From Bilabrum cf. latius (lineage: Eukaryota): a stretch of 64,000 nucleotides of DNA. The notes below the pieces were generated by a model that was not told where the DNA came from, made no database searches, and was given only the letters and a program-made list of their open reading frames with translations. The position numbers and the translations under genes were made by a program. Below, one piece after another: positions 2,641 through 64,000 of this stretch. The stretch spans positions 1,550,001 through 1,614,000 of the forward strand of contig OZ237736.1 in NCBI GenBank assembly GCA_965178125.1, in the 5' to 3' direction. How positions within the stretch are numbered: position 1 is the first letter of the stretch; every line of letters begins with the position of its first letter.

Positions 2641-4170
2641 TCACATGATATCTTCGGTCACGGGCTCCATTTCCTCCACCTTGCCCACACCGAACTCTCC
2701 CTCGTCCTCGTCCGCCTTGCTCTCCTCGCCCTCCTCCACCTCGGCCGAGCCCAGCCAGTCCACCATGGGCTGCGCCGCCTCCTTGGCCTCTGGCCCCGCG
2801 ATCCCTTCCTCGTCACCCCCCGCCCCACTCGAGGCCCCCGCGCTCCCGAACCACGCCATGAGCGGCTCCTCGTCCAGCGCCCCCGCGTCGTACAGGGCCT
2901 TGAGGCACAGCGGCAGCAGGGGCCTGAGGGGGGGCATGAGTCGGACCACCGTGTCCTCCAGCTGGTGCAGCAGGCACACCTGCTGACGAGTGGCCAGCCG
3001 GGCGCTGCCCGTGTCCAGCAGCGCCACAAGGATCTGCTGGTGCATTTCATCCCTGCACGCGGCCAGCAGCTCGGGCCCCTGCATGGCTGCCCTAAAGTAC
3101 AGAGCGGCCCGCTCGTGGGGGGGCAGCGCCGAGTTGGTCTGCGCCTGCACCACCGTGGTGACGGACCGGACCATATCTGCGTCTCCCGCCTCCTTGAGCG
3201 TGGTCCTGATCAGCAGGGCCGCCGAGTCCAGCGCGCCCTGGTCGTCCACCACCACCATGGCGCCAAGGCGGGACACCTCGCCCTCGTCCAGCTCCGCACC
3301 CGCATCCGCGGCCGTCTCGCCCAGCGCCGCTCCGACATCCAGGTCGTCTGCCGCGCCTCCTCCTCCGGCGATTGCCTTTCCCTCGTCCTCGCTCTCCCCG
3401 TCCGTGTCCGTGTCGGAGTCGGAGTCCTCCTTGCCCTCGTCCCGCTTGCTCTTCTTCGATTTCTTGCTCTTCTTCGATTTCTTGCTCTTCTTGCCCTTCT
3501 TGGCCTTCTTCTCGGCCTTGCGAGTCATCAACTCCTTGGCAATTTGGGTTGCTAGCCTATGGCTCATGTCTACCTTGGACTTGGCACCGCATGCCTTGCA
3601 CTTGAGGCCCAGCGTGCTGCCCTTGCCAGCCTTGTCCTTCTTGCTGAGAAACGTTGTTTCCGGGTTGCCGCACTTCCCGCACAAGACGAAGCGCTGAATA
3701 AAGTGATACACCTCGGACTGCGCATCCTTCTAGTCGTGCACACCGTTTACAATTGCCTTGCTGAGCTGCGCACAATGCATTCAAGACTACGCATGATATA
3801 GCAACAGCTCGATGGAAGAACATAGCGGGCAAACTTGGATATGTGTGCGCCACATATAAAAATGCATTAGTGAGTACCAACAGAGGGCAAACTGACCGAG
3901 GCATGCACAAAGCCCTGGCGAGAAACAGGACAGGTTCCCTTTCGAAGTTGCAGTCCTCACCTTGTCCTCAAATCGAGACTAAGCACCCCTCTCCACGCCA
4001 ATAAACTTGGTCAAATGCAAAGGCTCTCTCTTGATTGCCTCCGCTACGTCAACCATGTTCACCATGACCGTCTTAATACCATTCCCGCTACCCTCTACCT
4101 TCGTGACGATCGCAGGCATCTTGTACCGGTATGCAGGGTCATCCGACCCATTTACGTTAACCAAAGCCAT
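2641..4170 (-). CDS. EIF5: Eukaryotic translation initiation factor 5; one intron (~3766-3960); in-frame TAG at 3979 and 3730
   Basis: Motifs [43 protein letters not shown] and CKACG, plus an acidic W2-type C-terminus ([18 protein letters not shown]). Ends at TGA. Confidence 0.95.
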
Positions 4171-4351
4171 GACTCTAGTGCTTTTGTGATTAAATTCGGC
4201 CAGACTATGCAACTCTATTCAAAGCTCAGTGAGAACGAAGCTTCGAAAAATTCTTTGGTCAAATATACATACTATGCTCAAAAATACACCGTATAATTAC
4301 CACTTCTGCACTTTAATGTTTTTCGTTTAACACTGCTTACACGGCTCCAAT

Positions 4352-6100
4352 ATGCCAAGAATTGAAATGGATATTAAGCTCGATTATCGCGACGTGTTGA
4401 TCAAGCCTCGGCGATCTACTCTGAAGAGCAGATCGGAAGTCGATCTTGAATGCGACCTGAAGATGCAAGGCGGAAGGGTGAGCGCTATTTGTTGCTGCAG
4501 CAGGCTTGCACCGGTATGGTATTGCTACCATTCTGTTTTTTGTCGGCCGTGCCACTGTTTTGTTTGGTCGCGTGTACGCGCGGAATGCGCACTATAAGAC
4601 ATTCTCATCGTGACCTGTTGGATCCATCCGTCTAGACTGGAATTGCAACTGGTATCGCAGTCATGGAAAGGAGTTCCAGTCGTATCTGCGAACATGGATA
4701 CAACTGGTACGATCGCGACAGCCATCGAGCTTGCGAAGCACAAATGCATGACTGCTCTTAACAAGTTCCTGACCGTTGAAGACTACCTGGCTCTGCAAAA
4801 GAGCAACCCTGAGGTCCTACCTTACGTCGCTGTGAGCGCGGGGACTGCGGCATACGACACCGAGATGCTATCTGCGATCCTGACAGCTGTGCCGGAGGTC
4901 AAGGTGATCTGCTTGGATGGTGAGACGACCCCTCTGCGGAAACCGAGATCCGATGCGAACACTGTGGCTCCCAGCCTGGGTTCCTTGATCAGCCCACCCA
5001 ACCACCTTGGTCATGCACCCTCCTCTCCCTCTCTCGCAGTGGCCAACGGGTATTCCGAGAGCTTTGTAGCCCACGTGGCCACCATCCGCAAGATGTTCCC
5101 CGAGCACGTGCTCATCGCGGGGAACGTATGCACGCGTGAGAGGGTCGAAGCTTTGCTTGCGCAGGCAGGTACATGGCGCGCGGCTGCCACCCGTGATGAG
5201 AGCCGATTGCCATCCGCTAGGTCTGCCTTTCTTCTCCAGAATCGACTGCAATTGGCATCTCTCTGCCACAAGCAATGGCATTATCATTATCATCGCAGCG
5301 GAGCAGACGGAGGAGCTGTGCCTCAACGGCGCCGACATCGTGAAGGTAGGCATCGGCCCGGGGTCCGTGTGCACCACACGGTCCCAGACGGGCGTAGGCT
5401 ATCCCCAGCTGAGCGCTGTGCTCGAGTGCGGGGAGGCGGCCCGCGGGCTGGGCTGCCACGTGATGGCCGACGGGGGGTGCACGTGCCCGGGGGACGTGGC
5501 CAAGGCCTTCGGTGCCGGGGCCTCGTTCGTGATGCTCGGGGGCATGCTCGGGGGCCACGACGAGAGTGGGGGAAAACTCGTGGAGAGAGACGGGCGCAAG
5601 TACAAGATGGTGAGAGAAGAGCCCTTAGGGTCCTGCGTGCTGTTTATTGTGGACAAGTTTTGGCACCGCATCAGTGTTAGGTGCATTGCATTGCATTGCA
5701 CTCGTTTCCTCCTGTTTGCCGCGCCCATGCCCCACATCCCCCGCAGTTCTATGGAATGAGCAGCTCCACGGCCATGCTCAAGCACAAGGGAGAGGTGGCC
5801 GAATACCGCTCCAGCGAGGGCAAGACGGTGGAGGTGCCTTACAAGGGCCCCATCCGGGGGACCATCCTGAGCGTGCTGGGGGGGCTCAGGTCCTCGTGCA
5901 CGTACGTGGGGGCGCCCCACCTGGACGAGCTGTCCACCAGGACGACCTTTATCCGGGTGCAGCAGACTGTGAACCCCATCTACGCCCAGCTCAAGACGGA
6001 CAGGTCGCACGGGTACAAGAAGAGCGCTGGCGCTGGCGCTGGCGCTGGGGATGCAGGGGCTGCGACTGGCGGGGCTGCGGGCGGCGAGGGTGGAAAATGA
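4352..6100 (+). CDS. GMPR: GMP reductase; four introns (4478-4660, 4920-5039, 5136-5298, 5610-5746)
   Basis: [70 protein letters not shown] and YRSSEGK. All introns are GT-AG; ends at TGA. Confidence 0.96.
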
Positions 6101-15800: not shown

Positions 15801-17546
15801 CAAGCTAACCAACATCACCGGCTCGCCTCCATCCACACGCAGGGAAGGTTCACGCGCCCCCTCTTGCAGCTGTGGCCGGCCCCAGCTCCACCAGCCAGCC
15901 AGCGAAGACCGGAGCGCGTCCAGCCTGTCGCTTGGACTCACGGCAGCTTCCTTGCCGCCATCGCCGCTGCTGCCGTCCTCGTCCTCCTGCCCACCCCGCA
16001 GCCAGGCACGCGCGTGCTCCTCCGAGCTCAGCGTGGCATGTCCGCCCACTGCACCCCCCGTCGCACACGCACCCCCTTCGAGCCATGCCTCGGCCAGCGC
16101 CACTGCAGCATCAGGAGCACCGCCAGCGAGGCGGTCAGCACTTTCTCGACTCATCGCCGTCACTAGTTCGGCCACTCTAGACTCCGAGCTTGCTGTGACG
16201 GGGGAACCTCCGACAGCAACCCTGGCTAGCCGATCTGCGAGTACGGGTAGCCCGGCCGAGGGGTCGATCGGTGGCTGCAGCTGCGGGTCAGCGGGGTCCA
16301 TTCGAAGGCACCTGAGAGCCGAGTCGCCTCCATCAGGTATTCGGTACACCACAGGGGTGGCATCGTTGTCGAGGTTCTCCTGCTCCCCACCACGCCGCCC
16401 ATCTGCAAGCATCCATGCACCTCCACCAGGCACAGCCAACACTATCACCCCATCCGAATCTCCGCTTCTAAAGCTCTCGGTGAGCGCCTCGGCCGCCTCA
16501 AAGTCGAGTGGGGACAGAGGCGCCTCCACCCCGAGCTGCGTGCCCCTATGCCTCACCTCTGCCAGGGCCAGCACGCGCCCGAGTCCGTCTTCCGTCTCCT
16601 TTGCGTCCACCGCCGCCGCACTGGCCTACCCGGGCTCCCCCGCCCCCCTGCCCTCGATCTCGCGCGCCCCAGCCGCCAGCTCTGCAAGCGCCGCCAACGG
16701 CCCCAGCCTCTCCCAGCGGAGCTCCGACAGAGCACCGGCCTGTCCACCGCTGCTTAGAGCGCATGCGCGGCGCCGGTTCCGTCGGATTTCCTTCCTCAGA
16801 CCGGTGGCCGTCGGTAGTGCCGCCCCGACCGCCGTGCTGGCAGCATTTGTGGAGGCCAGCCGCCCCGCCGCAGCCAGCGACGCAGCCACGGGGCAGGATG
16901 GGTCCTTGGCCCCCAATGCAGCCGCGCTGTCCACGGGCCAGCCGTGCACGGTGGATGTGCCGCTGGCCAGCGCCACGAGCTGCACATTGGGCGCAGCCGG
17001 GGCTTCATCATCCAACGCGCTCGTCGCATGGATCGGGGGCAGCCGGGCTAGCACTGCGGTCAGGGCCCGCGGCAGGACCGAGCTGTATGACTGTTCTTGC
17101 TCGCTCAGGACTGATTCGGAGGCTGAGTGCTCCCACAGGTGTGCGAGCCCTCGGCAGCCGCGCGGGTCATGCGCCCACCCTCGGGGCACAGCTACTGCCG
17201 CGGACGGGGCTTGGACGCCTCGTGACACCGCGCACACAATCAAGGCATCGCGGAAACCATCTTGGTAGCCCGTCGCTTCAATGGTATTAGAGACGCACCC
17301 CGCCCACAACTTGACGCGTACCACTAGATGGCATGGCGATCTGGATACAACTTTGAATTGAGGCAGTATTGACTGAAGCGTGCGGATGGTAGATCGAGCG
17401 ACCTACGGATCAACCAGAGATTGCAGCCGGTCTGAACCCCGCACAGAATCATTTTCAATCTAATTTTGGGCTTCTCTTGCCTATCTCCGTGCCCGAGCGC
17501 GCTAGAGCGCCTGCAGAGCTTCGCTACCAACAAGTTTCGTTGTCAT
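12849..17546 (-). CDS. Uncharacterised ~1565-aa intronless protein with internal 17-aa tandem repeats (requires TAG=sense; 12 TAGs)
   Basis: Eight ORF-track fragments share one frame and are separated only by TAG. ATG at 17546 gives MTTKLVGSEALQAL*RARARR*AREAQN*IEN. First non-TAG stop is TAA at 12851-12849. No domain recognised. Confidence 0.7.
14846..15392. repeat. 51-bp tandem repeat, about 10 full units plus one shortened unit, encoding AASTDRSMPAGH(Q/H)SSSI on the minus strand
   Basis: Unit ccgctatcgaggagct(g/c)tggtgtccggctggcatgctgcgatctgtggaag repeats head-to-tail with no spacers. Confidence 0.95.
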
Positions 17547-17796
17547 GATAGACCGTACGAAGCCTCGATTCCATGCAGTCACGATCCAAGACCGAAACGA
17601 AGATGCAGGCTTCATACTATTGGCATCTAGTGCATGGTTGGTGGCGCGATATACTCAACATCGACCAACAGATGCGACCGCTTGGCGCAGCTCCGAATTG
17701 CGTGTGCAACGGACGCAACACTCTGGTGAAACCAGCAGAAAAACAAATAATGACCCACTTTTACTCTGCAATGGACCAACTTAGGTCAATCGAAGG

Positions 17797-38172: not shown

Positions 38173-40707
38173 TCACTCCTGCCCTTCCCCCGACAGGTTC
38201 ATGAGGCCCCTTCTTGACCTCCTCTTCTTCTGCGCCGCAGGCGGGGCCACGCTCTCGCCAGTCAGCAGCTGCACTGCCTCGGCCACGTCAGACACCTCGT
38301 AAACGCTGATGCCACCGGGTCCCAGCCGAGGTGCCCGCGAGCCGGCATGCCCCCACTGCTTGCCTCCCCCCTTGCCCCTGCCACCACCTCGCTGCACCTG
38401 CCCCTGCTCCTCCTCGGGCAGCGCCTCTCGCACCACCGCTAGCTCAGCACCGCTCGCACCCTCACCTACGATCTCCCGTGCGATGTCCTGCTCGATCGTC
38501 ACACCCCCGAACTCGCTCTTTCGGCCCCCGCCTACCCCTGCCCCATCCAGTCGCTGCACCTGCCCCGAGGCTCGGCCCCGGCCAGCCCCTGCCCCTGCCC
38601 CAGTCTCCCCGCCGGCAGACCCGCCGTGGCGAGGAGGTCCAGAGGCGGGCACGAGGGCCCACTGGAACCCGAGGGCAGAGGCGGCCCGCAGTCGCGCGTC
38701 CACAGCAGGCACGCGCCGCACCTCGCCCCCCAGCCCCACCTCACCGATGCACGCCACCCCCCCAGGCAGGGGCACGTCCAGCAGACTTGAGGCCACGGCC
38801 GCAGCAGCCGCCAGGTCCGTCGAGGGGTCTCTCAGCCTGAGTCCGCCCACCACGTTGAACAGCACGTCCCCTCTCCTGGGGAACAGGCCGGCGTGCTTGC
38901 CCAGCACCGCGAGCAGCAGGTGCAGCCGGTCGAGGGCCAGCCCGTGGCTCCGGTGCCGAGGGTACTCCCCCGCGGCCTGCGCCACCAGGGCCTGGACCTC
39001 CACCAGCAGGGGGCGGGTGCCCTCCAGCGGGGCCGCGACCGCCACTCCCGAGTTCCGCATGCGCGGCGCCGAGTGGATGGACCGTAGCCGGGGCTTCTTC
39101 GTGGCCCCGTCCTCGGCCTCGTCGTCCTCCGGGGCCGACAGGGACAGGAACAGCTCCGCGGGGTTGTCCACAGGGACGAGGCCCCCGCCCGTCATGGTGA
39201 GGACACCCACTTCGTCGGTCGAGCCGAAGCGGTTCTTGGTCGCACGTAGAAGCCGTGTGCTGGCCCCGCCGCCACCCTCACCGCCCCCACCCCCCATTCC
39301 CATGCCCCCGCCCCCGCTGCCCATCCACGCCGCCTCCCCCTCGAGCTGGATCACGGTGTCCACCAGGTGCTCCAGCACCTTGGGCCCCGCGACCTCGCCG
39401 CTCTTTGTCACGTGCCCCACGAGCAGAACCGGGATGCCTGTGGCCTTCGCAAGCTGCAGCAGTCGCAAGGAACATTCACGAACCTGCGTTACGGACCCGG
39501 GGGAGCTCTCCAGCTGCCTGGAGAACATGGTCTGGATGCTGTCCACTACCAGCACGCTCACTGATGGCCAGTCATTCGAGCCCTTGCCGCCTGTGCTGGT
39601 GGTGCTGCCAGCACCCCCGCCCCCACGCGCCTGTCCTGCCTCCTCCCCGTCGCTCTCTTCCTCCTCGGACTCGCTGCCGCTCTCCTCGCCCCCCTCGCTC
39701 CTTCCTCCCGCCCGCAGCACGCCGAGCACCGCATCCAGCGCGTCCTCCACGCAGGGTTCGTTCATCGCAGACACGCCCGCCAGTGCTGACCGGCCCACCC
39801 CACCGCGCCGGGGCCGATGAACCTCGTCGAAACTGGCCATTCCCGACCCCGTGCCCCCGTCCGCGCCCTGTTTGTCATGGCCACCCCCAAAGTCGTTGTG
39901 GTCGTCGTCATCCCCCAGCACCGCAGACAGCCTCATTGCCTTGTCCCTCACCTGGCCCACGCTCTCCTCGCCAGAGAGATACACGGCCGTGGCCCCGGGT
40001 CTCTTGGCGGCGCACATGATGGCCAGCTGCAGCGCGAGCGTGCTCTTGCCCACTCCCGGGCTGCCCGCCAGCAGGGTGAGCGAGCCCTTGGTGAGGCCGC
40101 CACCCAGCACGCGGTCTAGCTCCGGCTCGCCCGAGGGAAGCCTGCTTTCCTGTGGCGCGCGAGATGTGCCCCCGGAGCTAACACCGGATGCACTGTTCCC
40201 GGCAATGTGCTACCTATGCTCGTTGGCAAGAAGCAGCGGCTCCAACCGGCCTGCTTCAGTCGTGCCAGCCGCTAAGCCCCCAAGGCCGTCGCCGGAGAAG
40301 TTCCAGGATCCTTGGGGTGCATTTCGCGCCTACCCAGATTTGAATGTAGCGGATCGCTTGCCGATCGGGCTAGCGCCGCCCTGCGACCTGACAGAATCTA
40401 GAAAACCTCCCGCCGTGCCGGCCGCTGGTGCTGCGACCTTGAACTCCTTCAGGCTGCCCCACGTCCCACAGGCGCTACACTTTCCGGACCACTACACATG
40501 ATTGGCTCCGCATTCCTCGCAAACAAACTCAACTCTGTCTTTACCGCGTTTTTTGCTGCAGCTGCGGGTGGTTTGGAAGCCGCGCTGCGGCATCCGGGCG
40601 AGCGCGTGCCGTTTTGTGCGGCTTTGCCGATGCACGATCCCAGCAAGCGGTAAAAAGTGCAGACGAAAGGTCTGCACCACGAGCTATGCATGCCTTGAGA
40701 GCTTCAT
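38173..40707 (-). CDS. radA: DNA repair protein RadA/Sms with probable mitochondrial presequence; four in-frame TAGs
   Basis: Zn finger FVCEECGANHV*WSGKCSACGTW, ELDRVLGGG, Walker A GSPGVGKST, VVDSIQT, GHVTKSG..AGPKVLEHLVD, KNRFG and Lon-like C-terminus (GEVGLGGEVR). ATG 40707; ends at TGA. Confidence 0.93.
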
Positions 40708-40877: not shown

Positions 40878-43800
40878 ATGGCATCACCACCATTTCCACG
40901 GTCATAGTTTGTTTTATCTGCTGTAGCATAGACTCCGGATGCTAGCGCTGGGTACAAGGAAGACTCGCCGCTGGGCTCCGTGCGAAAGCACACTCGCCAC
41001 TAGAAGAACATGCTCTTGGTTAAGAAGAGCTTGGACTTTTTCGAGTAGCATGTACCTTGTTAGCTGCCGGCGGACATGAAACGAGAGGAATATAAGAGCG
41101 TGATGAGTTCCTTGTCGGATGGCAGGTTCTTGCTGGAAGCCACCGAATACACGGCATCGGTCTGCTACACTAGCTTTCGCCCTGGCGCGAAGAAAATCAT
41201 GGAAGGAGACACATTCAATTGGTAAGCACGACTGCTCTTGAAGCTGATTGGTGTTCCTGTGCTCGTTGTGAAGCAGATTAGACAGATGCCGGGCTCCTCT
41301 ACGGCTGCTTCATAAACCAAAAATCTCCGAACGTCTCCGCAGGATGGACACCGTGGCGTGCGACAAGCTGAAAAGTAACGTCAGAACCGTAACTAGTTCA
41401 GACTTTAGAAGGGCGGGCCACGATGGTCTGCACAAGCTCGCCACCTACCTGGAATTTCTCCACAGGTGCGCCGTGGCTCAGTAGGCACCACCGCCGCCCA
41501 AGCCCGTGACGGGCGTGGGCAGCAGCACCAAGAAACCTCGTGCCTCGCGAATCCCAGGAGAAGAGGACACAGGCAGGGCCTCCGCCGCGTGCACGCCCTC
41601 CCACTCCAACTCCCGGGGACCCCCCCTGACGGGAGATGGGTACATGGGCCCCTTGCAGCACCACGGGGGCCCCGCGAGAGCGCCCCGGTCATTGCGCAAG
41701 GCCGGCCCTCCCTCCGCGGGAGCCAGCACTGTGGCCTCGGAGCGGTCGTGCGCCGGCCATCTGAGCTCACAGCGCCTCGCAGGCCGCATGATCCAGATGC
41801 GTGCCAGGGGCACGCCGGGGAGGATGCGGGCGGGGGCTGCGGCGGCCGAGGCGGCGGCACAGGCGCAGCGAGAGCTCGACAATGCTACTCGTCGCGCTGA
41901 GACGCTCGAGGCTGAGATGCGCTGCCTGAAGGGCGACAACGAGTCCCTCAAGCAGCAGATTCAGCGCCAGGTGGACAGCATGGCAGAGCTGAGGGGGCGG
42001 TACGAGGCGCAGTCAGAGGGGCAGGGAGCGCTGCACCAGGACTTCGCCAAGCAGGTGGAGGAGAAGGAGACGGCCCGTCAGGAGGCGAGGCAGAGGGCCC
42101 TCGAGGCGGAGGAACAGGCGGCCAAGCTGGAGACCGAGCTGGAGGACACGAGGCGCAAGCTGCACCGCAACTCGACGCGCAAGGCCGAGGCCGAGGCCGA
42201 GCTGGAGGAGGCCCAGTCGGAGGCGGAGCGGGCGCGGGCCGAGGCCAAGGACGCGCAGGAGGCCCTGAGGGTGCTGGAGACCACCATGGCGGAGGACGCC
42301 GAGAGGAGGTCCAGGAGGGAGGAGGAGGACGCCAAGCAGCTGGCCAGGCTCAGGGCGGGGGCGCAGGCGCAGTCCAAGGCGGCCCGCAGCACGGTGGAGC
42401 GCTGCCGCTCCGCGCACTCTGCGATCAAAGAGGCCGCCCAGGGCATGAGGGAGCTGGCGCAGGTGGTCAGGGCCGAGACGGCCTCTGCCTCCTCGGAGCT
42501 GGGCCGCCTGGGCCAGGCGCTGGCCGAGGCCGTGGGCCGGGCGCAGGAAGGGGCCAGGGAGGCGGACCGGCGGTTCATGCGCGAGTCCAGGGAGCGGCGA
42601 AGGGCCTTCAACCAGCTGCAGGAGCTGAAGGGGAACATCAGGGTGTTCTGCAGAGTGCGGCCCATGCTGCCGCGCGAGCAGGACAAGGGCGAGAGCGCTG
42701 TGGTGGCGACCCCCTCTGACTTCGAGATGGTCGTGGGGGCGGGGGCGGGAGCGGGGGCCGAGGACGGGGAGGAGGCCAAGGAAGGGGGCGCTGCGTCCTC
42801 TGGATCCGGGTCATCTGACCCTGCGGCAGCCACGCCATCCAAGAAGAGGACTCGCCGTCTGGGCGCGGGGGCAAGCGGGGCCGAGGGGCAGCTGCAGAAG
42901 TACGAGTTCGACCGGGTGTTCGGGCCGCAGTCGACGCAGCAGGAGGTGTACGACGAGATCAGCCCCATGGTCATGTCGGCTCTGGACGGCTTCCACGCGT
43001 GCATCTTCGCGTACGGGCAGACGGGCTCGGGCAAGACGTACACGATGCAAGGGGGCCGCGAGGGCGAGGAGCACGGCGTGTACCTCCGTTCCCTGGAGCA
43101 GCTCTTCGACGAGAGGGCCGCGCGCACGGACTCGCACGACTACGAGCTATCCGTGTCCATGGTGGAGATCTACAACGAGACGGTGAGGGACCTGCTGCAC
43201 GCGGAGTCTGCCAGGGCCGCGGCGGCGGTGGCCTCCAACGGGCCGGGGGCGCCGGGGGCGGGGAGCGCCGGTGTGGTGGACATCAAGCAGGGCCCCCACG
43301 GAGTGTACATGCCCGGGTGCACCTCGGTGCCCGTGGGATCCGCCGCTGACGTGGCGCGGGTCATGGCCCGAGGGGAGGCCTCCCGCTCGGTGGGATCGAC
43401 CGACTCGAACGCGCACTCCAGCCGCTCACACATGCTCCTGCTGGTGGACGTGACCGGCACCAGCCGGGTCAACGGTGCCATGTCCAGGGGGCGCCTCGTG
43501 CTCGTGGATCTGGCCGGCTCGGAGCGGGTGCGGAAGAGCGGGGCAGTGGGGCAGCGCATGCTGGAGGCCTAGAACATCAACCGGAGCCTGAGCGCGCTGG
43601 GAGACGTCATCGCAGCCCTGACGCACAAGCAGAAGCACATCCCGTTCCGCAACAGCAAGCTGACCTACCTGCTGCAGGACTCGCTGGGCAAGGACAACAA
43701 GGCCCTCATGATCGTCCAGGTGTCCCCCATTGCGGGGTCACAGGGGGAGACCACTTGCTCCCTCAAGTTCGCTGCCAGGGTGCGCAAGGTGGAGCAGGGC

Positions 43801-50914: not shown

Positions 50915-53900
50915 TCACTGGCCCTCCTTCGGGGTGGTGCCTTCCTCCCGCACCCGCTGCACGTGGTGCCCAGCTTCCCGCAGGCTGCTCTCGATGTCTT
51001 GGTCCTGAGACCCTCGCCCCGCGACCCCCGGGTCCAGCCGTGGAGAACCGCCCTGCTGCGACTGCGAGTTGGACTGCGAGTAGGTGCCCCGCAGCATCTG
51101 GCCAGCGCTGCCCGCCGTGTCCCCGCGCCCGCGAGCCGACAGCGGCATCGCCCCCGCAGGCAGCCCGGACCCCGACCTGTCCAGCGCGGGCCTGGACCTG
51201 TTCCTGCTCACCGAGGTGAAGGAGGTCATGGCCCCCAACACAGAGTGGCCGCCGTCGGACCGCTAGCCCCTGGAGGAGAGCAACGACCCGCCGCTGGCAC
51301 CCAGTCGACCCAGGGCGCGGCGGGGGTCGCCGTACGGCGATCGAGGACTACCTTCATCTGCCCCTTCACGCCCGATGCCCCCCACTTCCTCCTCTTGCTT
51401 CTGCTTGTGCCTCTGCTGGCTCAGCCGGCCGCTCCTGGACCCTCTCCCAGACCCTGTCCCTGTCCCTGTCCCAGCCGTCAAATTGCCCGCGCTCTGCTCT
51501 CGGGAAGACACCCTGCTGCCACCTGACGCCTCATGCTCGCGCGCCGCCCGGTCCTCGGCATGCGCGCGAGACCCGCTGCGGCCATCCTGGCTGTGGCTGT
51601 GGCTCGCGCTCGAGTCCGCCCCTCGCGTGGTGGGCGGGGCAGCGGAGGGCCGGCGGGTCTTGCCTCGGCCGGAACGGCGGCTACCCCTCCTGTCTCTGCT
51701 TCGGCTGCTGTCGCTCAGAGCAGACGCCCGGCTCTGGCTCCGTCGCTACGAGGCCCTGTCCTCCGTGCTGGACCGACGGGAATCAGCCCCACTGCTAGCC
51801 CTCCCGTCGCCGCCCTCACCCGCAGCCTCCAAGGCCTGCTGAACGTGTGAGGACGCGAACTCGAAGCGTTTCTTGCTCGGGACTGACCTCGCGCCCGCCA
51901 TAGACTTGGGGTGGGCTCGATCCCCCTGATGCCGCGAGCGGGCAGGCAGCCCAGTCTTGGCGTGTACCAGCCGCCGGCTGCTGCCGCCAGACGCACCGGC
52001 TCTGTTCCCCAGCGCCCTCTGGGAGACGGAGGGACCTTGACCCGCGCCAGCACCCGCCGCCAGGTTCAGAGATCGGCTGGACTGCGGCCGGCGCTTCGCA
52101 AAGAGATCTCTCAGCCGCCCCAACTCTACCCGCTCCCCTGCACCACTGCCGCCGGCGTCACCGCGGTCGGTGTCCCGACGGTCCTTCGATGAAGTTGCCC
52201 TCACATGGCGCTGCAGCCGCCCGAGGCTGCGGGCGGATTCACGCTGAGCAGGGGGCTGGGGACCCCGCCTACCGTGGGCCCGGTGTCGCTACTAGGAGGC
52301 AGAGGAGGAGGGCGGCGGCGGGGCAGTCCCAGAGCTGCGGCGGTGCTCAATCACACCTACCCCTCCTCGCCCTCTTCCACATCCGTCCGCTCGCGCGCCC
52401 TAGTCCTCTCGGTCATCGTAGTACGCGTCTCTGTCGTCATAAGCGACTTGCCCGCGCCCGCGCCCGGATCGTCTGCCAGAGTCAGCCCGCCGGCAATCGT
52501 AGCTACCCGCCCCCGAGGTGCCCCCGATCGTCAGCAAGTCATCGTCGTCCTCTTCCTCCTCTTCAAGCTCCCGCTCGAGCTGGTCCTCCTCCTCCTCCCG
52601 CTGCCGCACCGACGCCTCGATCCGCCGGAGGGCCCGCCGGAGGGACCTCATCTCGTCCTGCTGCTGCGCGATCCCGCGAAGCACGGTGGCCAGCGCATCT
52701 GCAGGCACCCCTATGATCGGAGCAGAACCCGCGCTGGATAACCCGAGCTGCCCCACCGAGGCACCGAGTCCCTGCCGTGCCGCCGTCCGTCCGCCGTGCA
52801 TCGCCTACACCTGCGCTGCCATCTCAGCCGCCCCGCTGCTACTGCGGCGGGCCGCTTGCTGCACCGCCTGGTCAGCCTCCGACAAGGAGGTTGCCCGTAC
52901 CTGCCCCTCTGCGCCCCCACTGCTCTTGCGCTGGGAGGAGGCCCCTCCGCTTGAGGCCACCGACCCTGACCCTGCCATCTCCAGGTGCCGTGCCACGCTG
53001 GGCATGAGGTGTTCCCTCGGCGTGGAAGGGGAGGCTCCCATGGGCCGACGCCCGCCACTGCCCACAGATGAAGAGTTGTCTGTGGCCAGCGACCGCAGGC
53101 CCCGACCCTTCTTGTGCCTCTCCCTGGAGCCCGGGCCCGTGTCAGCGTCCTCGTCCTTGTCTCCGAGGTGGTGCTGCGGCGGGGTGCTGGCAGCGCTGGA
53201 AGATTTGGTGGACTTGCGGCCGTCCTGCGCGGCGCTGTGGCGGTCGCTTGTGTCCGCGCCGGCCTGGGATCGAGACCCGGTGGAAGGTCCCCCCACCGAG
53301 GACGATGTCGCGACCGAGTGCGAGTGCGAGTGCGACACCCCGGACTGGGGGCCCACGGAGCGCGGGTGGGAGGCGGCGCGGGACCTGGTGTGCAGCTCCT
53401 TGCCCGGCCTGGACTGCGGGTCCTGCTCTTGTCTTGCCGCTGCGTCCGAGATGCGCACGGACTTGCGCGCCGTGCTGCTACCACTGCGGCTAGTGTGCAT
53501 GGACCCCTCCCCTCCTGTGGCCGAGGACCTGCTCCCATGCTTGCTGAGCCCGCCTGCCGTGTGGCGGTCTCCGTCCTTGTCCTCCTCCTCGTCCTCTTCA
53601 TCCTCCTCCTCCTCTGCATGGGCCTCCTCAGACACGAGCGGCAGCACCTCACCTCCCCGGCCAGACGCCTCCCCTGAGGTTGCTGATCCAACCGAGCTCA
53701 CCCGCCCCAGTCGCGGACTGCTCTGACCCGAGGCACCCACGAGTCCGCCGCCCTGCAGCGACCCGTGTTTCGGCGAGCCCCCATCCTCGCCGGCACCGGC
53801 CCCCAGGTCCCACGGCCGCCCGAGCCCGCCCCCTTCGGTGTTGGACCGACGCAGCACCATCATGCCCCCAGGGCCTGACCCACCCTATTCTGCAGTGGGG

Positions 53901-56900
53901 TGGAACCCCTCGGGACCCCCCTCTTCCATTACCTGCGCCTCGGGGGGCGGCTGCAGCTGCATGCCAGGCACCCGCACCGAGGACCCCTCTGGACTACCTG
54001 GGGGTGCCACCTGCTGCGCAAGCGGGGATCCGATGGGCAGATGACTCATGCTGTGCGCCCGTCGGGGCCGCACCCCCCCTGGTGAGAGACTAAGCGCCTC
54101 CTGCTGCCTGCGGGCCTGGAACCCATAGGCCTGTCTCCGCATCTGCTGCTGCAGCTTCATGCGGGTCAGGTGCGCCATCCCGAACACGCGCGTGGGGGAG
54201 GCCCACCCACCTCCCTTCGAGCCTTCAGTCCCGGTCCCGGTCCCGGTCCCGGTCCTCCCTGAACCGGTGCCAGCAGCCCCATCCCCGGCGGCACCCTCTG
54301 AGGCAGCTCCGGACACGGCGCGCTGCTCCCGGACCTGGATGGACAGACCGCCCGCACCTGCCACACCCACCGCATCCCTGTCTCCGTGGCTCGAGTCGCT
54401 CTCCCCAGACGAACCGCCCATCATCTGCGCCTCATCGCCCGCGCTCCTGGACCGGCGCTGCCCTCGCCGGACGTTCTGCGATCCAGCAAACTTGCTGAGC
54501 ATGGCAGCGGCCCTCGCCTTTGCCTTGGCCTCGGAGCCCGCTTCCGACACGCTCCCCGAGCCCGCCCTATCTCTTGTTCCCTGGGCAACGTCACCGTTAC
54601 TAGTCGAGTCGCTCTGCAGCTGCGCCGTTGCCTTTGCGGCGACCATGGCCTTCTTCACTGCGGGTGCAGGTAGTGCAAAGGAGTGGCTGCGGGACCGCTG
54701 CCTCGTGTCAGCCGGCAGGTCAGGCACCACGTCCCACGGAGAGGGAGAAGGGGAGGGGGAGCTTGCCGCGGGACTGGGGTCCCCAGAGCCCTCCTTCCGC
54801 TTGCCGGGGCTCCCGCCCGCGTCGGACCCCGTGGGGGCCTCGCCGGTTTCTGTCCTGCGGCGGCTGCTGCTGCGATCACCCACAGTTGAAGCCGTGCGGT
54901 CACCGGTGCCCACGCGATCGGTGTAGGACCCCGCTCTGCCTCGACCCCGGCCCGCGCCCCTGACTGCGCTCACGTTGCCCGAGGAGGCACTCAGCGCGCC
55001 AAACACGCTACCAGGGGGCGGCCCCGCCGAGCTGAGCGCCTTGGGCAGGTCTCCGGCGGTGTCTGCGTCATTCTCGCCGGTGCCGCCCGCCCCGCCGCTG
55101 CCGACCGACGTGCGCTCCCTGAGTGAGTTCTGATCCGATTTTTGGCTCGTGTTGGAGCTGCCGCCCGTCCTGCGACTCCTTGACCCACGGCTCCTGGATC
55201 CCCCTCCGCGGCTCGACCTGCGACTACCCCTGACCGACCTGCGCGACTTGGCCTCCTCCTCCACTGCAGCCGCTGCCTCGGCGGCCTGCGCCTCGGCAAG
55301 CAATATGTCGCGCTCCTCGTCCCGCCCCAGCTGGCCCAGCATGATGGCCCGCTGCCGCACGGATGTCTCGTCACTCCCGGCAGACACACCCGAGCGCCGG
55401 GAGTCCGCGGTCGTGAGTCTGCCAGAGTTACCGAGCGCACCGCTGGCCGGGGTACCGTACGGTGAGTTGCCCTCGGTGGGGCTGAGCCGAGGCTTGCCTG
55501 TACTAGCCCCGCCCTTCTTTCGTTCCTTACCTCCCTTAGGATCTCCATGCTTCTCATTGTGCCTGTGCGCGTGCCTGGCCTGGCCCCCTGCTGACTGGCC
55601 CATGCTGCCCGCACCGGTGGGCCCGCTGCCGCTGCGGCCGTCCTCCACAGACACTTCTCCCGCAGAAGAGCGGGTGGGGTGCTTGCCCGCCAGCTCGTCC
55701 AGCGTGTCCGCCAGAGTGGCGAGGGCACCTGCCACGGCACCCTCGCCCTTGTCGTCCCCCTCCCCGGCGCTGCTGTGCGTCGGGGACTGGGCAGTGCGCG
55801 CATGTCCGGCAATTCTCTCTCCGTGAGGCTCGTGAGGCTCGTCTTCGTCACTAAGCCGCAGAGAAGACTAGATCGTGCCCAGGCTGCGCTGGCCCAGGGT
55901 GTCGCGCCGCTGCTTCCCTCCCACTCGCCGCACGCCGCCGCGCCTGCTGCTGCCTCCGCTGTGCCCTCGATTCCTGCCGCGCCGGGATCGGCGACTGCCG
56001 CTGCCCGATGCTGTGGATCCCTCCGCGCGCCTGCGGCGGCTCCTTCCCTCTCCCCCGGTGATGCTGCTCGAGTCATCCGTCTCAGACCCGTGCCCGGGGG
56101 CCTCGGGCACCGCCTGCAGCAGCCGCAAGCCAGATCCAGTCCCCCGGCTCATCTGCATGGAGGGCGGCCGCCTCATGTTGAGCATGCCAGCGGGAGGGTC
56201 CCGGTGCCCCTCTTGCCGCTGTTGTTGGGGCTGCTCACCGTGCCCCCGGTCTCGACTGCGGCCCCCTGCGAAACTGTTGCGTTTCACCCGCAGCATATCC
56301 TGGGTCATCTCGTCCCTGGTGCCTCGATCCGCGCTCAGGCGGGGCCTCCGCTTCCCCACCACGCTGCGAGCCGAGGTGCTCTTGCGCAACATCGCCCGCC
56401 GCGCCCTCCTGCGCCTCTCTGAAAGACCGCCCACCCGATCCCCAGCGCCACTGGATTCCCCGGCGCTGCCGCGTGGCGAGGGGCCCCGCCGCCCGCCAAA
56501 CCCGCGCCGCGACCGAGCCCGTGCGCCCTTACCGATACCCGGTGCCCTCGACACTCCCTCCTCCCCTCGTTTGCCATCGCTGTCCGAGGCGTGGTAGCTG
56601 TACACGCTCTCGTCCCCATGCAGCCCCTCCTCCTCTTCTTCAACTCCCTCGTCCACTTCCATGACGCTAGCCATCGGCCCGGTCCCGCCGTATCCCGCCC
56701 CGACCTCGCCCTCACCATCGTCCTCGTAGTAGTCCTCGCCTTCGCTTCCCATCCCGTCGCCTGGGCCTCTGCTGTGGTACCCATCCCCGCCGTCACCTTC
56801 CCCCTGGCCCTCCGCACCCCCTTGCCCCAGCATCTGGTTCTCGATGGCGGCGGCGTTACGCTCCCACTGCCGCTGCTGCTGCCGCTGGGTGATCTCGTGG

Positions 56901-59900
56901 TATGCCTGGTTGAAGTTTGAACCCAGGATGGAGATGGGCAGTGCCAGCAGCAGCACACCGCCGAGCACGGTCAGCGTGCCCGCCAGCCGGCCCCACGTCG
57001 TCGTTGGGACCACGTCGCCGTACCCAGCAGTGGTGGCGCTGATGACAACGTACCAGAAGCTCTGCGGGATGCTAGTGAAGGGCGTGGGCTCCTCCTCTGT
57101 CCGGAGTCCATTCGGCCTGACGAAGCGCCCCTGCTGCTCGTCCCATGTCCCTTGCTCGGCGAAGAACACGAGAGACCCGAACACCACCACGGCCAGCAGC
57201 ACGAAGAAAAGTGTCAGCAGGAGAGCGTCCACTGAGCGGGACAGCGCGTTCCCGATCATCCGGAGTCCGTTGGAGCGCCTGCCCAGCTTGAAGATCCGGA
57301 GAACCCTGCCGAGGCGCAGCACGCGCAGGATCGCTAGTGAGCTCGCGTTCGCGTTGCCATCCGCACCTGCGCCCAGCGCTGCCAGCGCCAGCTCCACGTA
57401 GAACGGCAGGATGGCCAGCAGGTCCACGACCTCCATCGGGCCGAGGGCGAAGCGCCGCATATCTGCGAGAGCACGGCCCAGGCTGCTGCAGGCCGCGCGC
57501 CGGTGGCAGCAGCAGATGCAGCTGAACCAGGGCGCCCGCTTTGGGTGCTTGGCCGCGGGCCCGTACGGCACCTCCACGCGACGGAGCACCTCCGACTCTG
57601 GACCATCCAGACCGTTAGCGTCCCCGCCAAAAGCACCGTGCTACTGGACTTCTTCTTCGTCTCCTTCGAACGATTCCCATGGTGGGAGGATGCCGCAGGT
57701 CCCGGCACAGCACCAGCATCCGCCTTCCGCTTCGTCGCCCGCTACTGCCACCGACCACAGGCGGTGCACGGCCTCGTCCCGCCGCAGCTCCGCGCGAGCC
57801 AGCCGCCTTGCTGCCGAGTAGGCTCGCTGCAGCAGCGGGTCTGGCTGTGGCGGCAGCGCCACCATCGTCTCCCCCCTGGCGTGGCCCCCCGCCGCCCCTA
57901 GATCGCCCCCGTCCTGGTCCTTGCCCTCGCCCGAGTCGCCTGCGATGTCGATGCGCAGCTGTGACGAGGACTGTGCGATGCGGCCGGAGCCCTGCTGCTT
58001 CCATTGATCGAGAGCGGTACGCCGCTGCTCCCTGCGATCACCCGCGAAGTCCATGGCAGAAATCCTCGCGGCTGGGCCCGCTGCATCCGCGGCGATCTTT
58101 GCACTCTCTGCCGCGAGGAAGAGCGCACCACGGGCCCGCAGCATGTGGTCGGCGGCGCGGCATCGCCGAGTCCACAGTCTCCTAGAACTGATGCACGGCA
58201 CTGCAACCTCTACCACGGCAGCGTCACTGCCCTTGGGCGGTTCCTGTTCCTCTCCAGCTGCGTCCTTTGCGCTGCTTCTGTCGCTGTCAGCATCCGGGGA
58301 CTGCACATCCACGACCGCGATGTCTCCGCCGTGCATGGCCACGGGTGAGCTGGGGATCGACTGCGCAAGCAGAGGGTCCGGCGACGCACCCGAGTCCTCG
58401 TTGGTCTTGGGAGTGCCGCCGCCGGAAGGCTGCAAGCCAGAGGTAGGCGAGATCCTGCTGGCACGCCGCACCCTCACTCCCGTGTTCTTCTTTTCCATGG
58501 CCGTTCGCAGCGCGTCGCTCGTGCTAGTCCTCGTCCTGCGGATGCGGGTCGGGCTCGAGGAGGACAAGGCGTCCCAGCGCATCACCAACCGCCCTAGTCC
58601 GCTGGCGCCTCCCGTGCTGTTGCTCTCGCTATCACCACCGTGCAATACCTCTTGCTCGTCCTGAGGTGAGGTCAGGAACTGCATGAACGCCTCATCGTCG
58701 AGCTCAGAGCTGTCCTCGTCCTCCTCCAGCGCGTCCTCGAGCTCATCCTCCCAGCGAGCCGTCACCTGCTCCTGCCAGGGCTCTGGCCTGGCCCACGTGG
58801 TGACCAACCGCCCCATGTACTCGAACGTAAATAGAACCACACAGACAGCCTCTACCCACGCAAACACATCCACCCCGAGCCGCACTTGCTCCTCTAGCTC
58901 CTCTGCTCGTGCCACGTCCGGAAGGTTACCGATGCCAGCCTCGTTCCGAGCCAGCAGCAGGCCGGCCTCCTGAAACCTGCCCTGCTTGCCGAGTCGATAT
59001 GCAGGCCCACTCTCGATGCAGAAAGACACGACGCTCAATAGGATGGCAAGCATCACGACCATGCCAAAGAACTGACCAGAGGCGCTGTTCGGACTGCCCG
59101 ACAGCACCAGGTGAGCCGCGTAGCATCGACGCACGCACAAAGAGGGGTACGCAAACGGCGGGTACTCGCCGATGGGCTGCCCCGAGCCACCCGGCATTCC
59201 ACTGCCGAAGCTGCCATGCTCTTCGTCTGGTTTCAAGGAACCACCATCCCCGGGCCCGGTGGCAGTGCGATGGGACGACTTCCGTACATCGCTGTCTCCT
59301 CTTCCGCAGCACCCGCTGGCCTCGTCCTCGCCCTCCGTCGGCGGGAGCCAAGCCCTGCCAGCAGCCCGCACCACCGCGGACGGTGCCACGATGCAGCCAT
59401 CGTCCCCGATGGGAGGGGCCTCGTTCTGTGCCTGGTCGAGCCAGTCGGCTGCGCGCCCCACGAGCTCCGGGTCATCGGCCCCCGTGTCGTCGAGCTCGCG
59501 CTCCACTGTCTGCGCGTTGTGAAGGCTGCCTGCTGCCACGCTCATCCTTTGCAGCCATCGGCTCACATCTCCGCGAGCCTCCTGAATTGCATGCGCGGGA
59601 GGGCGAGGCAGCCGCAAGAAACCCACGTCGGGCTCGTCCTCGGGCCCAGGAGAAGGGGCCACTGGCGAAGGCTGCCCATCAGCGGCGGGCCCGACTTTGG
59701 CCGATGAATTCGCATGCGATGCGCCGAGGCCAAGCCGTTCTTGCGTGATGCGCAAAGACTGCTGCGGAGCCAACGAGGCTCGGGGCCTCGGCTTGGCTGG
59801 GAGGACCGGTGCCACGGATGGGGGCCTCAGGCCACCGCTCGTGCCGCGGTCCCCTCCACTGGCGGCCTTGGCGTCCCCGCCGCCCGTAGTGGTCGTGCCC

Positions 59901-62900
59901 TGCAGCGCGGGGTCGCCGATGGGCAGTCTCGTCAGCGACCCACTGCGGCTGAGGGCTCGCACCAGCATACCCTGCACCTCTTTTTGTTCCCCCATATCCG
60001 CCGTGGACGCCCGCAGCGCCTTCCAGGCGAACACAGCGGCGTCCTCCGGCGCACTCCTGGGCCTCTCCCACCCTCCGGCTCCCAGACGCCGCGTGGAGCC
60101 TCCCGCCCCCTGGATGCGCAGCTCCAACCCTGCGTCCCACTGCCAACGCCATTCCTCCTTGTGCTCGTGCGACCACCCCTCGTAGTCTTTCTCGTCGAAC
60201 TCTGCCATGCCCTGGGGCGGGCTCGGCCCCGGCCTGGTCTCATCGTGGTACTCAAACCCATCCCCCAGGCGGCCGATCTCGAAGTTCCACACGCGCCGCC
60301 ACGGCTCTGTTGGGAACACTGGCTATCCGCAGACAACGCCGCCCCACGCGATTCGCAGCCGCCCCAGCCCCGCGCCAACGGAGAACATTGGCTTCACCAG
60401 GCTAGACAGCCTGCAGCAGCACGGCATCAGCGCGTGCCATAGCGCCTTCATACTCACGTAGCGACAGCATCCCGCCGGCTCGTCTGCCAGATTCGCCACG
60501 GTACGGCTGCCCGGCCGACTCGTACTCCCACCGCACGAAATGCAGCAGCAGCAGCATGAGCAGCAGGTAGACAGGCATGAGCTGCACGACTCGCAGCCCT
60601 CGACGTAGCAGAGCGGTAGCCTTGGCCTCCTGCTCATGTGCAGCCCTGCCAGCGCGTGCTTCCGCGCCTCGAGCTGGCTGCGCTTCGACTCGTCGGATCC
60701 GCCGGATGGCCGCAGCGGTCCCTGCCCCCGGCCCCCCGCCCCCCCAGCCCCGGGGATGCCCCCGTCCCGTGGTCCCGGTGCGCCCTCCCTCCCCGACCAG
60801 TACCCCTCCGATCTCTGCCCCGCGCCGACCGCACGGTTGTTGGGCGAACCCCCCGACGACTCCCATCCCTCTGACCCTGCTTCACGCGTGCCTCGCGGCC
60901 GCTGCCGCACCGCGTCCACGTCGATGAGGCCGATGCTACGCTCCGAGACGTGGCTCCGCGGGGCCCTCCGAGAGCGCCGCCGCATGGATTCCTGGAAGAA
61001 ATGGCGGCCACGAGCACCCGCGCTCGCGTCGGAGTCCATCATCGCTGTTGTGGGTCTTGACCCTGACTCCCGATGGCCCATCGTGGCGGAATGAGGATGA
61101 CTCCCGCTGGCCTCGCTGTCAGACTCACCCACTCCGCGCCCGCTGCCAGTCCGCCCGAACCCGCCAGTGCCGCCCCCTCCACCGTGCACGTGCTGCCCCT
61201 GTCCCTGGTCCAGGGAGTGGTGCGCCGTCGCGATGCCCAGCAGTCCACCCATCCCTCCAAACTGAGGGGTCTGCCCCGCGGCGCTCAGACGGTTGGACCC
61301 ACGCCGCGAGAGACCACCTTTGAACTCTGTGTTGCGGCGCTGGTGCCGCCGTCGAGTGGACGGGGGCCGAGGGGCCCCTGCCCCACTCCCTGCAGCCCAG
61401 CGCACCTCCCCAGTCTCATCATCCTCGTGCCCGTGACCGTGACCATGGTCCTGGCCACGGCCGTGCCCATGGTGCTGCTGCTCTACTTGATCCTGATCAT
61501 GTTCGTGCTCTTCGCTCTGTAGCCCAGAGGTCTTCAGCCGGGGCAGGTGCCGCCGCCCCTTCTCAGATTGTTCCCTCTGTTCGAGCCATTGCTGCCGGTG
61601 GCGAGGAGGTGGTGGGGGCGGCTTGGCATTGGCAGCCCCTGACTGCCCGTCTTCGCCCTTCGGCCACTCGTCTTGTCCCCGGGGGTATTCGCGAGCGGCG
61701 GTCTGTCCTTCCTGCCAGTGGTCGGTATCCTCCTGCCCGCCTCCCTGATGGCTGCCCTCGTCCTCGCTGTCGCCATCCTGATCCGCCCTCTCCATTTCCT
61801 CCTTCTCCTCCTTCTCCTCCTTCTCCCGCCTCGCCTTGGCAAGCGCTCGCATCCTCGCGAAGTTAGGGAGCATCCCCTGAAAGGAGCCCGAGGACGGCCT
61901 CCCGCTACCGCCTTCCTGCGCGCCGCCGTCTTGCGCCTCCCCTTTCGAGTCCTTGCTGCCTCCCCCGCCGCCGTCGCCCTTGTTCCTCGAGGTGCCAGCG
62001 CCCCCTGCCTACGCGTCGGCCCCCTCGTCAGGGCCCGTGGCGGCGGACTTGCCCCTGGACGCCCCGCTCTGCGTGTCGCTGGTGCCCTCTGCCTGGCCAG
62101 GCAACCTCGCCCGCATGCCGGCCTCGGCATCAGCCGCGCTGGGCTCCCGCCCGGACCGAGGCACCCGCTCCGGCACGGGCTCGGCGGCCGACCCGGAGTG
62201 AGACCTCTCCGCGTCGCTGATGATCCCGGTCGCAGGCACCACCTCGTCCTGAGACACGTCCTCCTGTCGGGCGGAGGAGCCCCCTGCGCCGTCCTTGGGG
62301 GCACCTGCCCCAGCTCGCCGGGCCCACGAGAGCCGGGACTGCATCTCAGGCCGCCAGCTCTGCCCGTGCTCCATCACTGAGGTCGAACGACGGCGAGACG
62401 AAGAACCGGCTGCGGGACCGCTCGACTCATGCACGGATCCAGACGCCTGCGACACCTGCAACGAACCGCTCCCAAACGCCGAGGACTCTGCCCCGGGCTG
62501 GTCGTGCGCGGAGTGTGCGGACCCATGGGCTGGCACCCCCTGCTGGCTCCTAGAGTGCCCCGGGGTCTCGTCAAGCAGCGACCGCCGCGAGCCCGAGACG
62601 AGTGCTTCCACTTCTCCGCTGGGTCGCCGCTCACGCCTGCTCCTTGGTTTCCCTTGAGTCACCAGAACCGCCAGCCGGGGGGCCCGGGCGGACCCAGATC
62701 TCACGTGCGTTGTCCCTTCATTGCGGCCCTGGGGCTGCTCCACGCGGTCCCCTGGGTCAAGCGGAGGTGTTGGAACGACCCCGATAGGCCCTCTGACGTC
62801 AGTTCCGCTCGAGTCAGAGCTCCCATGTTCCACAGAGGGTGGGGCCGCTCGCAGACCGACGGAGCGCCGTTCCGACACAGGACTTGCAGCCCCAACCGCG

Positions 62901-64000
62901 CTCCGCACCCGCGGCGGAGTGGCCACTGCATCGAAGGTACGCCTGCGGCCAATAAACGCACCCCTTGCACCGGGAGGTCCGTCGGCATCGGAGGCTGACG
63001 TCGGCTCCGTCTCGGATCCGCCAGTGGCGAGCCCCCTGCCCATGTCCCTGTCGACCGGCAGGTCAACGGATCCGAATCGGCTCTTGCGGTTGCCCCTTGC
63101 GCCCCGGGTGGAGGGCATTCCGCCCATGCTGCCGCCGCCTATGCCGTGCGATGTGCTCGACCACCCGCGGCGACCGGCCGGGCCGCCCCACGGCCGCTGT
63201 CTGCTCTGCGGCTGTGGAGTCCTGGACTCGCCGGGCCCGTGCCTGACCGCACGACCTGCCCCCGCGCTGATAGACAGACCCCGCTGGTGTGGCGAGCCTG
63301 CGAAACCTGCGGGAGACGCCGCCAGCGGTGAGCTAAAAGCATCCGCGGGAGACGTCATGGCCGCGGCGGCACCCATGAGTCCGAAGGAGAGGCCCGGCAT
63401 GGGGCCACCCACGGGTGTGCTGGCCGCATGAATCCTGGGAGACGGCACTTTGGAAGGCACGCGGCGGTGCCTCCGACGACCAGACAGCGTGCTGCTGTGT
63501 CCTGCCACGCTCCCGGACCGATGACTCCTTGTGCCTGCGGGCGAACCCAACTCCATGGGGCCACCGCCCCCGCCCCCGCCATCGCCATCTCTGCCACCAG
63601 TGCCTCTGCCCCCACTCGCGGCGGTAGCAGCGTCTCGGGTGCCGACGATCACAGACCGGCTGCGGCTGCGGGTCGCAGATTGTGACGAGTGCGATGCTAC
63701 TCCTGTCGTCGAGGCCGCAGCACCTCCAGCGGCCCGCCTCCCGCCCTCCGCGAGCATCCTGCCCTGCGAGGACCTGCGGCGGCTGCCAGGGGCCCTGTGC
63801 GTAGGGGTGGCCTGAGAGCTGGCAGCCATGTGCGTGTTGGTGATGCTGCGGTTCGAGTCCCCGGATTCTAGGGCCCCCCGGCTGTCCTTGCGACCAAACC
63901 CCGCGGTGGAGGCGCCACCGGTCGGTGTGCGCTGCCCCCTGGTCAGCTGGATCTCGGAAGCCGGAGGCAGGGCAGAGTCGCACCCTGTGACCCGTGGCAC
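50915..64000 (-). CDS. Giant voltage-gated K+ channel (Kv-like, 6TM), >4360 aa, 5' end outside the window; 11 in-frame TAGs
   Basis: Ten ORF fragments share one frame and are separated only by TAG; TGA at 50917-50915. S1 FFGMVVMLAILLSVVSFCIES, S2 VEAVCVVLFTFEY, S3 VVDLLAILPFYVEL, S4 LRVLRLGRVLRIFKLGR and pore WYVVISATTAGYGDVVP. Confidence 0.88.

Follow-up and report, generated by a model that had tools for sequence, protein, structure and literature searches.

In-frame TAG codons in the eIF5 gene of a GC-rich microbial eukaryote and the probable reading of UAG as glutamine

An eIF5 gene was identified near the start of the window (the whole stretch of 64,000 nucleotides of DNA that was analysed). 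Under the standard code this gene is broken by two in-frame TAG codons, which raises the question whether it represents a decaying copy, a case of leaky readthrough, or a working gene of an organism in which UAG has become a sense codon. In most genes of this organism TAG appears to be translated as glutamine. We consider it very probable that UAG specifies glutamine in a GC-rich nuclear genome in which TGA is the main stop and TAA probably a stop as well, and that the eIF5 gene is a working one.

The stretch would be nuclear DNA of a microbial eukaryote whose genome is GC-rich, gene-dense and poor in introns. In this organism UAG would have moved from stop to glutamine, and the two UAGs of eIF5 would be ordinary glutamine codons, read efficiently by the ribosome. 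With TGA as the usual terminator and TAA probably still a stop, the code would be of the type of NCBI table 15. By analogy with other lineages that use this code, a cognate tRNA-Gln(CUA) and an eRF1 blind to UAG may be expected. A tRNA scan gave no tRNA genes in the window or in the loci L001-L004, an Rfam search gave no matches at the gathering threshold, and eRF1 had no Pfam match among the window ORFs searched (under the standard code 313 ORFs reach 110 aa, and the longest 150 of these were used).

The eIF5 gene and its transcripts

The gene could be modelled as follows.

4170..2641, minus strand: eIF5 gene, from the ATG at 4170, with one intron and a TGA stop, 444 codons
4171..4229, minus strand: 5' UTR as present in the contigs (contig ends 4229, 4218 and 4223), without an upstream ATG
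3961..4170, minus strand: exon 1 (codons 1-70), with the ATG at 4170, Arg15 and the first half of the eIF-5_eIF-2B domain
3979..3981, minus strand: TAG in frame (codon 64), in the place of Q in the (E/R)GAQ motif (...ERGA*SRF..., the asterisk standing for TAG)
3766..3960, minus strand: spliceosomal GT-AG intron of 195 nt (GTGAGG...GCGCAG), skipped exactly by contigs of the runs X5, X6 and X8
2644..3765, minus strand: exon 2 (codons 71-444), with the zinc finger, a Lys/Ser-rich linker and the W2 domain
3730..3732, minus strand: TAG in frame (codon 82), following VNG(x)H at a surface position that is variable (...NGVHD*KD...)
2641..2643, minus strand: TGA terminator, covered by a contig of X5 (record 9) that runs on to 2610

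Both TAGs read CTA on the plus strand. The Pfam profile PF01873 (eIF-5_eIF-2B) matched exon 1 (E 3.1e-12, profile positions 5-60) as well as exon 2 (E 2.2e-11, positions 64-117), which bears out the claim of the sequence-only reading that both TAGs lie within the N-terminal domain of eIF5. The W2 profile PF02020 was matched over positions 2-79 of 79 in exon 2 (E 1.4e-11). The best PDB matches were the human and yeast eIF5 structures; for human eIF5 the E values were 6.8e-21 for exon 1 (2e9h) and 1.7e-21 for exon 2, and the C-terminal part matched the human C-terminal domain (2iu1). Arg15 is kept, in YRYKMP, as are the cysteines 99, 102, 126 and 129 (C-x2-C...C-x2-C); this arginine finger and the zinc-site cysteines are what we take to be the residues defining the GAP function of eIF5. 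By its domain architecture the gene is eIF5, with a predicted GTPase-activating activity on eIF2.

Like canonical eIF5 (human 2e9h/2g2k/8oz0, yeast 6fyx), the encoded protein combines an N-terminal GAP and zinc-binding domain, in which Arg15 lies, with a W2 domain at the C-terminus, but two glutamine positions are written TAG, and the canonical motif FGCELGAQ has become IGVERGA(Q). The protein is divergent, with an identity of at most 36-37% to any eIF5 in the databases (36% for the best relative). No frameshift or other internal stop was found across the 444 codons, so that the rest of the gene is as intact as had been supposed. Its glutamine codons comprise 12 CAG, one CAA and the two TAGs (2 of 15). 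The nearest database record, P0003, is without the N-terminal domain and starts with unrelated sequence, as might result if an intron or a TAG had disrupted the gene model.

Expression was studied with contigs of four runs that were compared with the window: X5 and X6 from one study, X8 from another, and X1, which is DNA-like. Both TAGs are covered, with no other letters and no gaps, by contigs of X5 (record 10; 3463-3765 joined to 3961-4229), X6 (record 13; 2729-3765 joined to 3961-4218) and X8 (record 17; 2652-3765 joined to 3961-4223). None of these three runs covers the intron bin 3774-3907; X1 contains one contig that is colinear with the DNA and retains the intron. In the adjacent GMP reductase gene, all four GT-AG introns are likewise skipped by contigs of X5 and X6. 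No run is recorded as RNA, and the contig comparison labels X5, X6 and X8 only as "RNA?" and X5 as "probably DNA"; we infer that they are RNA because five introns are exactly removed and cover of introns and intergenic sequence is absent. Given this, the intron-less contigs indicate that eIF5 is transcribed and spliced, and that both UAGs persist in the mRNA, removed neither by splicing nor by editing. The suspicion that this copy might be untranscribed is refuted by the exact removal of the intron and the unchanged TAGs in three runs from two studies. A second eIF5 was found neither in the window (Pfam, among the ORFs searched) nor, at a likeness of at least 90%, in X1.

The neighbouring gene has the following structure.

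4352-4477, 4661-4919, 5040-5135, 5299-5609 and 5747-6097: GMP reductase exons, from contig joints, with no TAG and a TGA end

The two genes are arranged head to head, with 182 nt between their start codons (4170-4352) and about 110 nt between the 5' ends of their contigs (4229 for eIF5, 4340 for GMP reductase). The 5' UTRs measure about 59 nt (eIF5) and 12 nt (GMP reductase), and cover of the 3' UTRs extends for about 31-47 nt. The short UTRs and close start codons point to a very compact genome. All five introns (the four of GMP reductase, within 4478-5746, and that of eIF5) begin with GTGAG and end with (C/G)CGCAG. The window as a whole has a GC content of 60-70%, is gene-dense, and contains few introns (GT-AG, 120-195 nt) and some very long genes of low complexity.

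In-frame TAG and stop codons across the window

The use of TAG inside genes is not confined to eIF5. Ten confident genes (12,009 codons) contained 33 in-frame TAGs, and not a single TAA or TGA. In 13 ORFs taken from stop to stop, and hence with their untranslated ends (17,176 codons), TAG was found 71 times, next to 653 CAG and 123 CAA codons; 42 of these 71 TAGs are located in the first or last fifth of their ORFs and may be partly non-coding. The most extensive example, with TAA and TGA alone counted as stops, is the following.

50918..64000, minus strand: long frame, 4361 codons or more since it is still open where the window ends; 11 TAG, 0 TAA and 0 TGA, and an Ion_trans domain (PF00520, E 7.7e-35)

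The off-frames of this stretch contain 53 and 65 TGAs, against none in the frame itself, and at the off-frame rate the chance of a frame of 4361 codons without TGA or TAA is about 1e-28. The frame encodes mostly Ala/Gly/Ser/Arg-rich sequence of low complexity, with one domain of the voltage-gated Ion_trans type (in 55871-57640), and carries an adjacent pair of TAGs at 52294-52289. A second long frame, of 2313 codons, has 21 TAGs. With as many as 11 TAGs in the 4361-codon frame, leaky readthrough could not give a full-length protein. The base that follows TAG (G 27, C 22, A 13, T 9) is distributed like that following CAG (273, 203, 97 and 76, respectively), and a special readthrough context is therefore not apparent. 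The earlier suggestion of efficient decoding, as opposed to gene decay or leaky readthrough, is supported by the intact gene, the spliced contigs, the TAGs throughout the window and this neutral following base. Repetitive sequence was found in another minus-strand ORF (12852-17654), where a 51-nt unit is repeated in tandem about 11 times over 14846-15392, with 94-98% matches between copies; the unit encodes the 17 residues ASTDRSMPAGH(Q/H)SSSIA.

Termination was inspected in 16 long or Pfam-supported ORFs, 13 of which end with TGA and three with TAA. It may be argued that UAA, too, specifies glutamine and that TGA is the sole stop (a code of the NCBI table 6 type), TAA being rare merely through the high GC content. 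Such a code would be in line with the dominance of TGA, with the in-frame TGAs that follow three and nine codons beyond the end of two of the TAA-ended ORFs (in the third, the TAA possibly belongs to a 5' splice site), and with the overall scarcity of TAA, which occurs 249 times on both strands against 681 TAGs and 1234 TGAs. If the ratio of TAA to TAG equalled that of CAA to CAG (123:653), however, about six internal TAAs would be expected in the ten confident genes, and none was observed. The zero count, from a small sample of GC-rich DNA in which TAA is uncommon, favours a reassignment of UAG only. Moreover, the Isy1 frame of a related environmental locus (L001) ends with TAA where the homologous Isy1 of the window has a TGA stop. 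On balance we regard glutamine at both codons as unlikely.

A second possibility is that UAG is ambiguous, read as glutamine inside genes but as terminator near the 3' end of the mRNA, as in Condylostoma and the karyorelicts or, for UAA, in Blastocrithidia. A TAG lies three to four codons before the first TGA or TAA in two of the 16 ORFs, namely 17464-24402 (TAG at 24391-24393, plus strand) and 12852-17654 (TAG at 12858-12860, minus strand), where about 0.3 would be expected from the rate of in-frame TAG. These near-terminal TAGs could be due to chance or be a remnant of TAG termination. The 3' UTRs in the contigs, at least about 31-47 nt long (contig ends 2610 and 6147, which are not true poly(A) sites), would suit such a mechanism. 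Condylostoma, the karyorelicts and Blastocrithidia resemble the present case in having stop codons frequently inside genes, with short 3' UTRs in the window contigs as a further parallel, but differ in that the window has TGA, and probably TAA, as dedicated stops and no gene shown to end at TAG. Where homology defines the C-terminus (eIF5, GMP reductase, Isy1 and PP2C) the gene ends with TGA and in no case at TAG. In this set of 16 genes the two near-terminal TAGs leave a small chance that UAG is still a stop in some contexts; an ambiguous UAG seems improbable.

The amino acid at TAG

The preferred reading, UAG as glutamine, was evaluated at conserved positions. For eIF5 we aligned the N-terminal parts of 96 homologues, i.e. 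all matches of the similarity search that were 340 aa or longer. In the structure-sequence match codon 64 corresponds to the glutamine of human ELGAQ, and in the alignment its column contains Q 81, L 4, M 3, I 2, S 2, R 1, V 1 and two gaps. The column of codon 82 (A 46, T 12, S 12, D 11, P 9, N 2, Q 2, E 1, M 1) is variable and, as judged from this alignment, uninformative on amino acid identity. Both TAGs were therefore found where the sequence-only reading had placed them, at the GAQ motif (3979) and in NGVHD*K (3730), but a conserved glutamine is seen at the first of them only. Two further sites were found in the window.

43570..43572, plus strand: in-frame TAG in a kinesin-14 motor domain (switch-II site), where the Pfam profile is split and relatives have a Q column
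40492..40494, minus strand: TAG in frame within the zinc finger of RadA (CGANHV*WSGKC)

The Pfam Kinesin profile breaks exactly at the TAG, with positions 1-252 in the ORF 41485-43569 and 254-327 in the ORF 43573-45414, and the codon aligns to Q in KIFC3 and Kar3. Its column holds Q 119, K 10, A 6, T 3, S 2, L 2 and one each of V, I, N and H in 146 relatives (those matching the motif among the 150 best representatives of the full HMMER search). The columns at the other two sites are of a different kind: that of the RadA zinc finger holds K 56, R 42, Q 3 and T 2 (103 with the motif of 120 matches), and that of a TAG in the Isy1 gene of the relative E 50, D 10, V 10, A 8, I 7, L 7, Q 4, M 2, S 1 and one gap (100 sequences). 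A PDB search with the copine N-terminus for further TAG sites gave no match, and in the PDB match of GH130 the TAG falls outside the aligned region.

Glutamine dominates two of the five columns (eIF5 codon 64 and kinesin), and not the other three. One could therefore imagine that UAG is a sense codon for another amino acid, e.g. lysine, glutamate or alanine, in view of the 98 of 103 lysines and arginines in the RadA column and the 50 of 100 glutamates in that of Isy1. Against this, neither lysine nor glutamate occurs at eIF5 codon 64 in any of the 96 homologues, and the kinesin site has no glutamate and only 10 lysines in 146. When the five columns were pooled with pseudocounts, glutamine was the best residue by 6.4 natural-log units over alanine, 8.6 over lysine and 10.6 over glutamate; at the four TAG sites of the window alone it was ahead of lysine by 6.35 log units. 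Glutamine is also the sole residue that occurs in all five columns. Another amino acid is thus very improbable, and glutamine as the amino acid at UAG is well supported by these comparisons, albeit from few sites, three of the five columns not being dominated by it.

That the eIF5 copy would be a decaying pseudogene, or depend on rare leaky or programmed readthrough, with a TAG-free copy elsewhere doing the work, is hardly credible, despite the 36% identity to its best relative, in the light of spliced contigs with both TAGs in three runs, the absence of frameshifts, the kept catalytic and zinc residues and intact W2 domain, the lack of a readthrough context or of a second eIF5 in the window or (at a likeness of at least 90%) in X1, and the similar use of TAG in most neighbouring genes, which pseudogenisation leaves unexplained.

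Relatives, known codes and implications

A metagenome scan with eIF5 exon 2 returned no relative, whereas a scan with Isy1 yielded three environmental loci (L001-L003) with about 73-76% DNA identity and 57-61% GC, which have the synteny of Isy1 and RadA in common with the window. The RadA ortholog in L001 is 69% identical over 498 aa, contains four in-frame TAGs and ends with TGA. In the Isy1 gene of the same locus (1357-2307) a TAG is followed in frame by the conserved C-terminal helix, and the public predicted protein of this relative (P0124) stops exactly at that TAG. In L003, a frame of 1018 or more codons that encodes a coiled coil has seven TAGs. By the evidence of these frames, the TAG-sense code is common to at least one related environmental organism, that of L001.

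The affinity of this group among named eukaryotes is less clear. The Isy1 protein is 72-89% identical to some database relatives and at most 50% to those of named animals and green algae alike; an affinity with the green algae is unsupported, Isy1 being no nearer to them than to animals. RadA matches are mostly bacterial, with scattered ones in Galdieria, Marchantia and Plasmopara, and the named neighbours of the kinesin (54-56% identity) belong to four different supergroups. A search of the protein atlas added no taxonomic information. In a quick tree of eIF5 with 43 rows (the window and 42 sequences chosen among the 120 listed matches, animals, true plants and alveolates being absent) the window grouped with two database records (support 85) inside a clade of 12 rows that contains Hondaea (support 100), apart from the remaining 31 rows, which include all named fungal sequences. 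This gives a weak hint of a stramenopile affinity, on the labyrinthulomycete side, for eIF5.

In the region 38176-46455 the RadA gene (minus strand) adjoins that of kinesin-14, and RadA has about 100 N-terminal residues that resemble an organelle presequence. The RadA match P0247 and the kinesin match P0514 come from one source, a hint that this gene order is kept in an organism related more distantly; both of these genes were called full-length under the standard code, and the organism may represent a standard-code outgroup.

Nuclear codes in which UAG only is read as glutamine are described for Iotanema spirale, Protocruzia tuzeti, Hartmannula sinica and Trochilia petrani (PMC11687900, PMC5304391), and codes with glutamine at both UAR codons for Amoeboaphelidium protococcarum, ulvophytes, hexamitids, oxymonads and many ciliates (PMC5304391, PMC6299283, PMC11687900). 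The species with a code of the table 15 type resemble the window in having UAG in frame at conserved glutamines of many genes, in that UAA is not observed as a sense codon, and in that UAG makes up a minority of the glutamine codons, with about 8% of the glutamine-type codons in the window (71/847) as compared to 18-32% in two ciliates. In the window, however, the main terminator is TGA (13 of the 16 ORFs) instead of the UAA preferred by those ciliates (PMC11687900). The window also differs from the named UAG-only lineages in its GC content of 60-70%, in its GT-AG introns of 120-195 nt, in its very long genes of low complexity, and in the position of its eIF5, which in the quick tree falls with a labyrinthulomycete-containing clade and beside no named lineage known to use this code. 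With the table 6 codes it shares UAG as glutamine and TGA as terminator, but it is without in-frame TAA in the 12,009 confident codons. The Amoeboaphelidium genomes have a GC content of about 40% (PMC10608142, from its Table 1), as opposed to 60-70% here, and on this figure an identity with Amoeboaphelidium is ruled out. Among open-access papers and bioRxiv preprints no report was found of UAG read as glutamine in a GC-rich non-ciliate protist, a labyrinthulomycete or a bicosoecid. This kind of code is rare but has been described before; the lineage may be new.

We tentatively propose, as a possibility that we would not yet call probable, that a poorly sampled, GC-rich protist lineage with a compact genome (with at least one environmental sister organism, represented by L001-L003, and a labyrinthulomycete as the nearest named eIF5 relative) has reassigned UAG alone to glutamine, independently of every case described so far, with TGA as main stop, and that UAG might still terminate next to a very short 3' UTR.

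For practical purposes it is relevant that gene calling with the standard code truncates the proteins of this organism, as in the relative whose predicted Isy1 (P0124) ends at a TAG, and annotation of the assembly and of its relatives with TAG as glutamine is advisable. Since eIF5 itself needs the decoding of UAG, the change would be fixed, and a return of UAG to stop would be lethal. To our knowledge, nuclear code changes are known from merely a few dozen eukaryotic lineages, and those of UAG alone to glutamine from a handful. If the proposed scenario is true, a code of the table 15 type was born under GC pressure, and not in AT-rich ciliates or metamonads; a further independent case, with 60-70% GC and TGA as main stop, would then provide a contrasting data point on the capture of stop codons.
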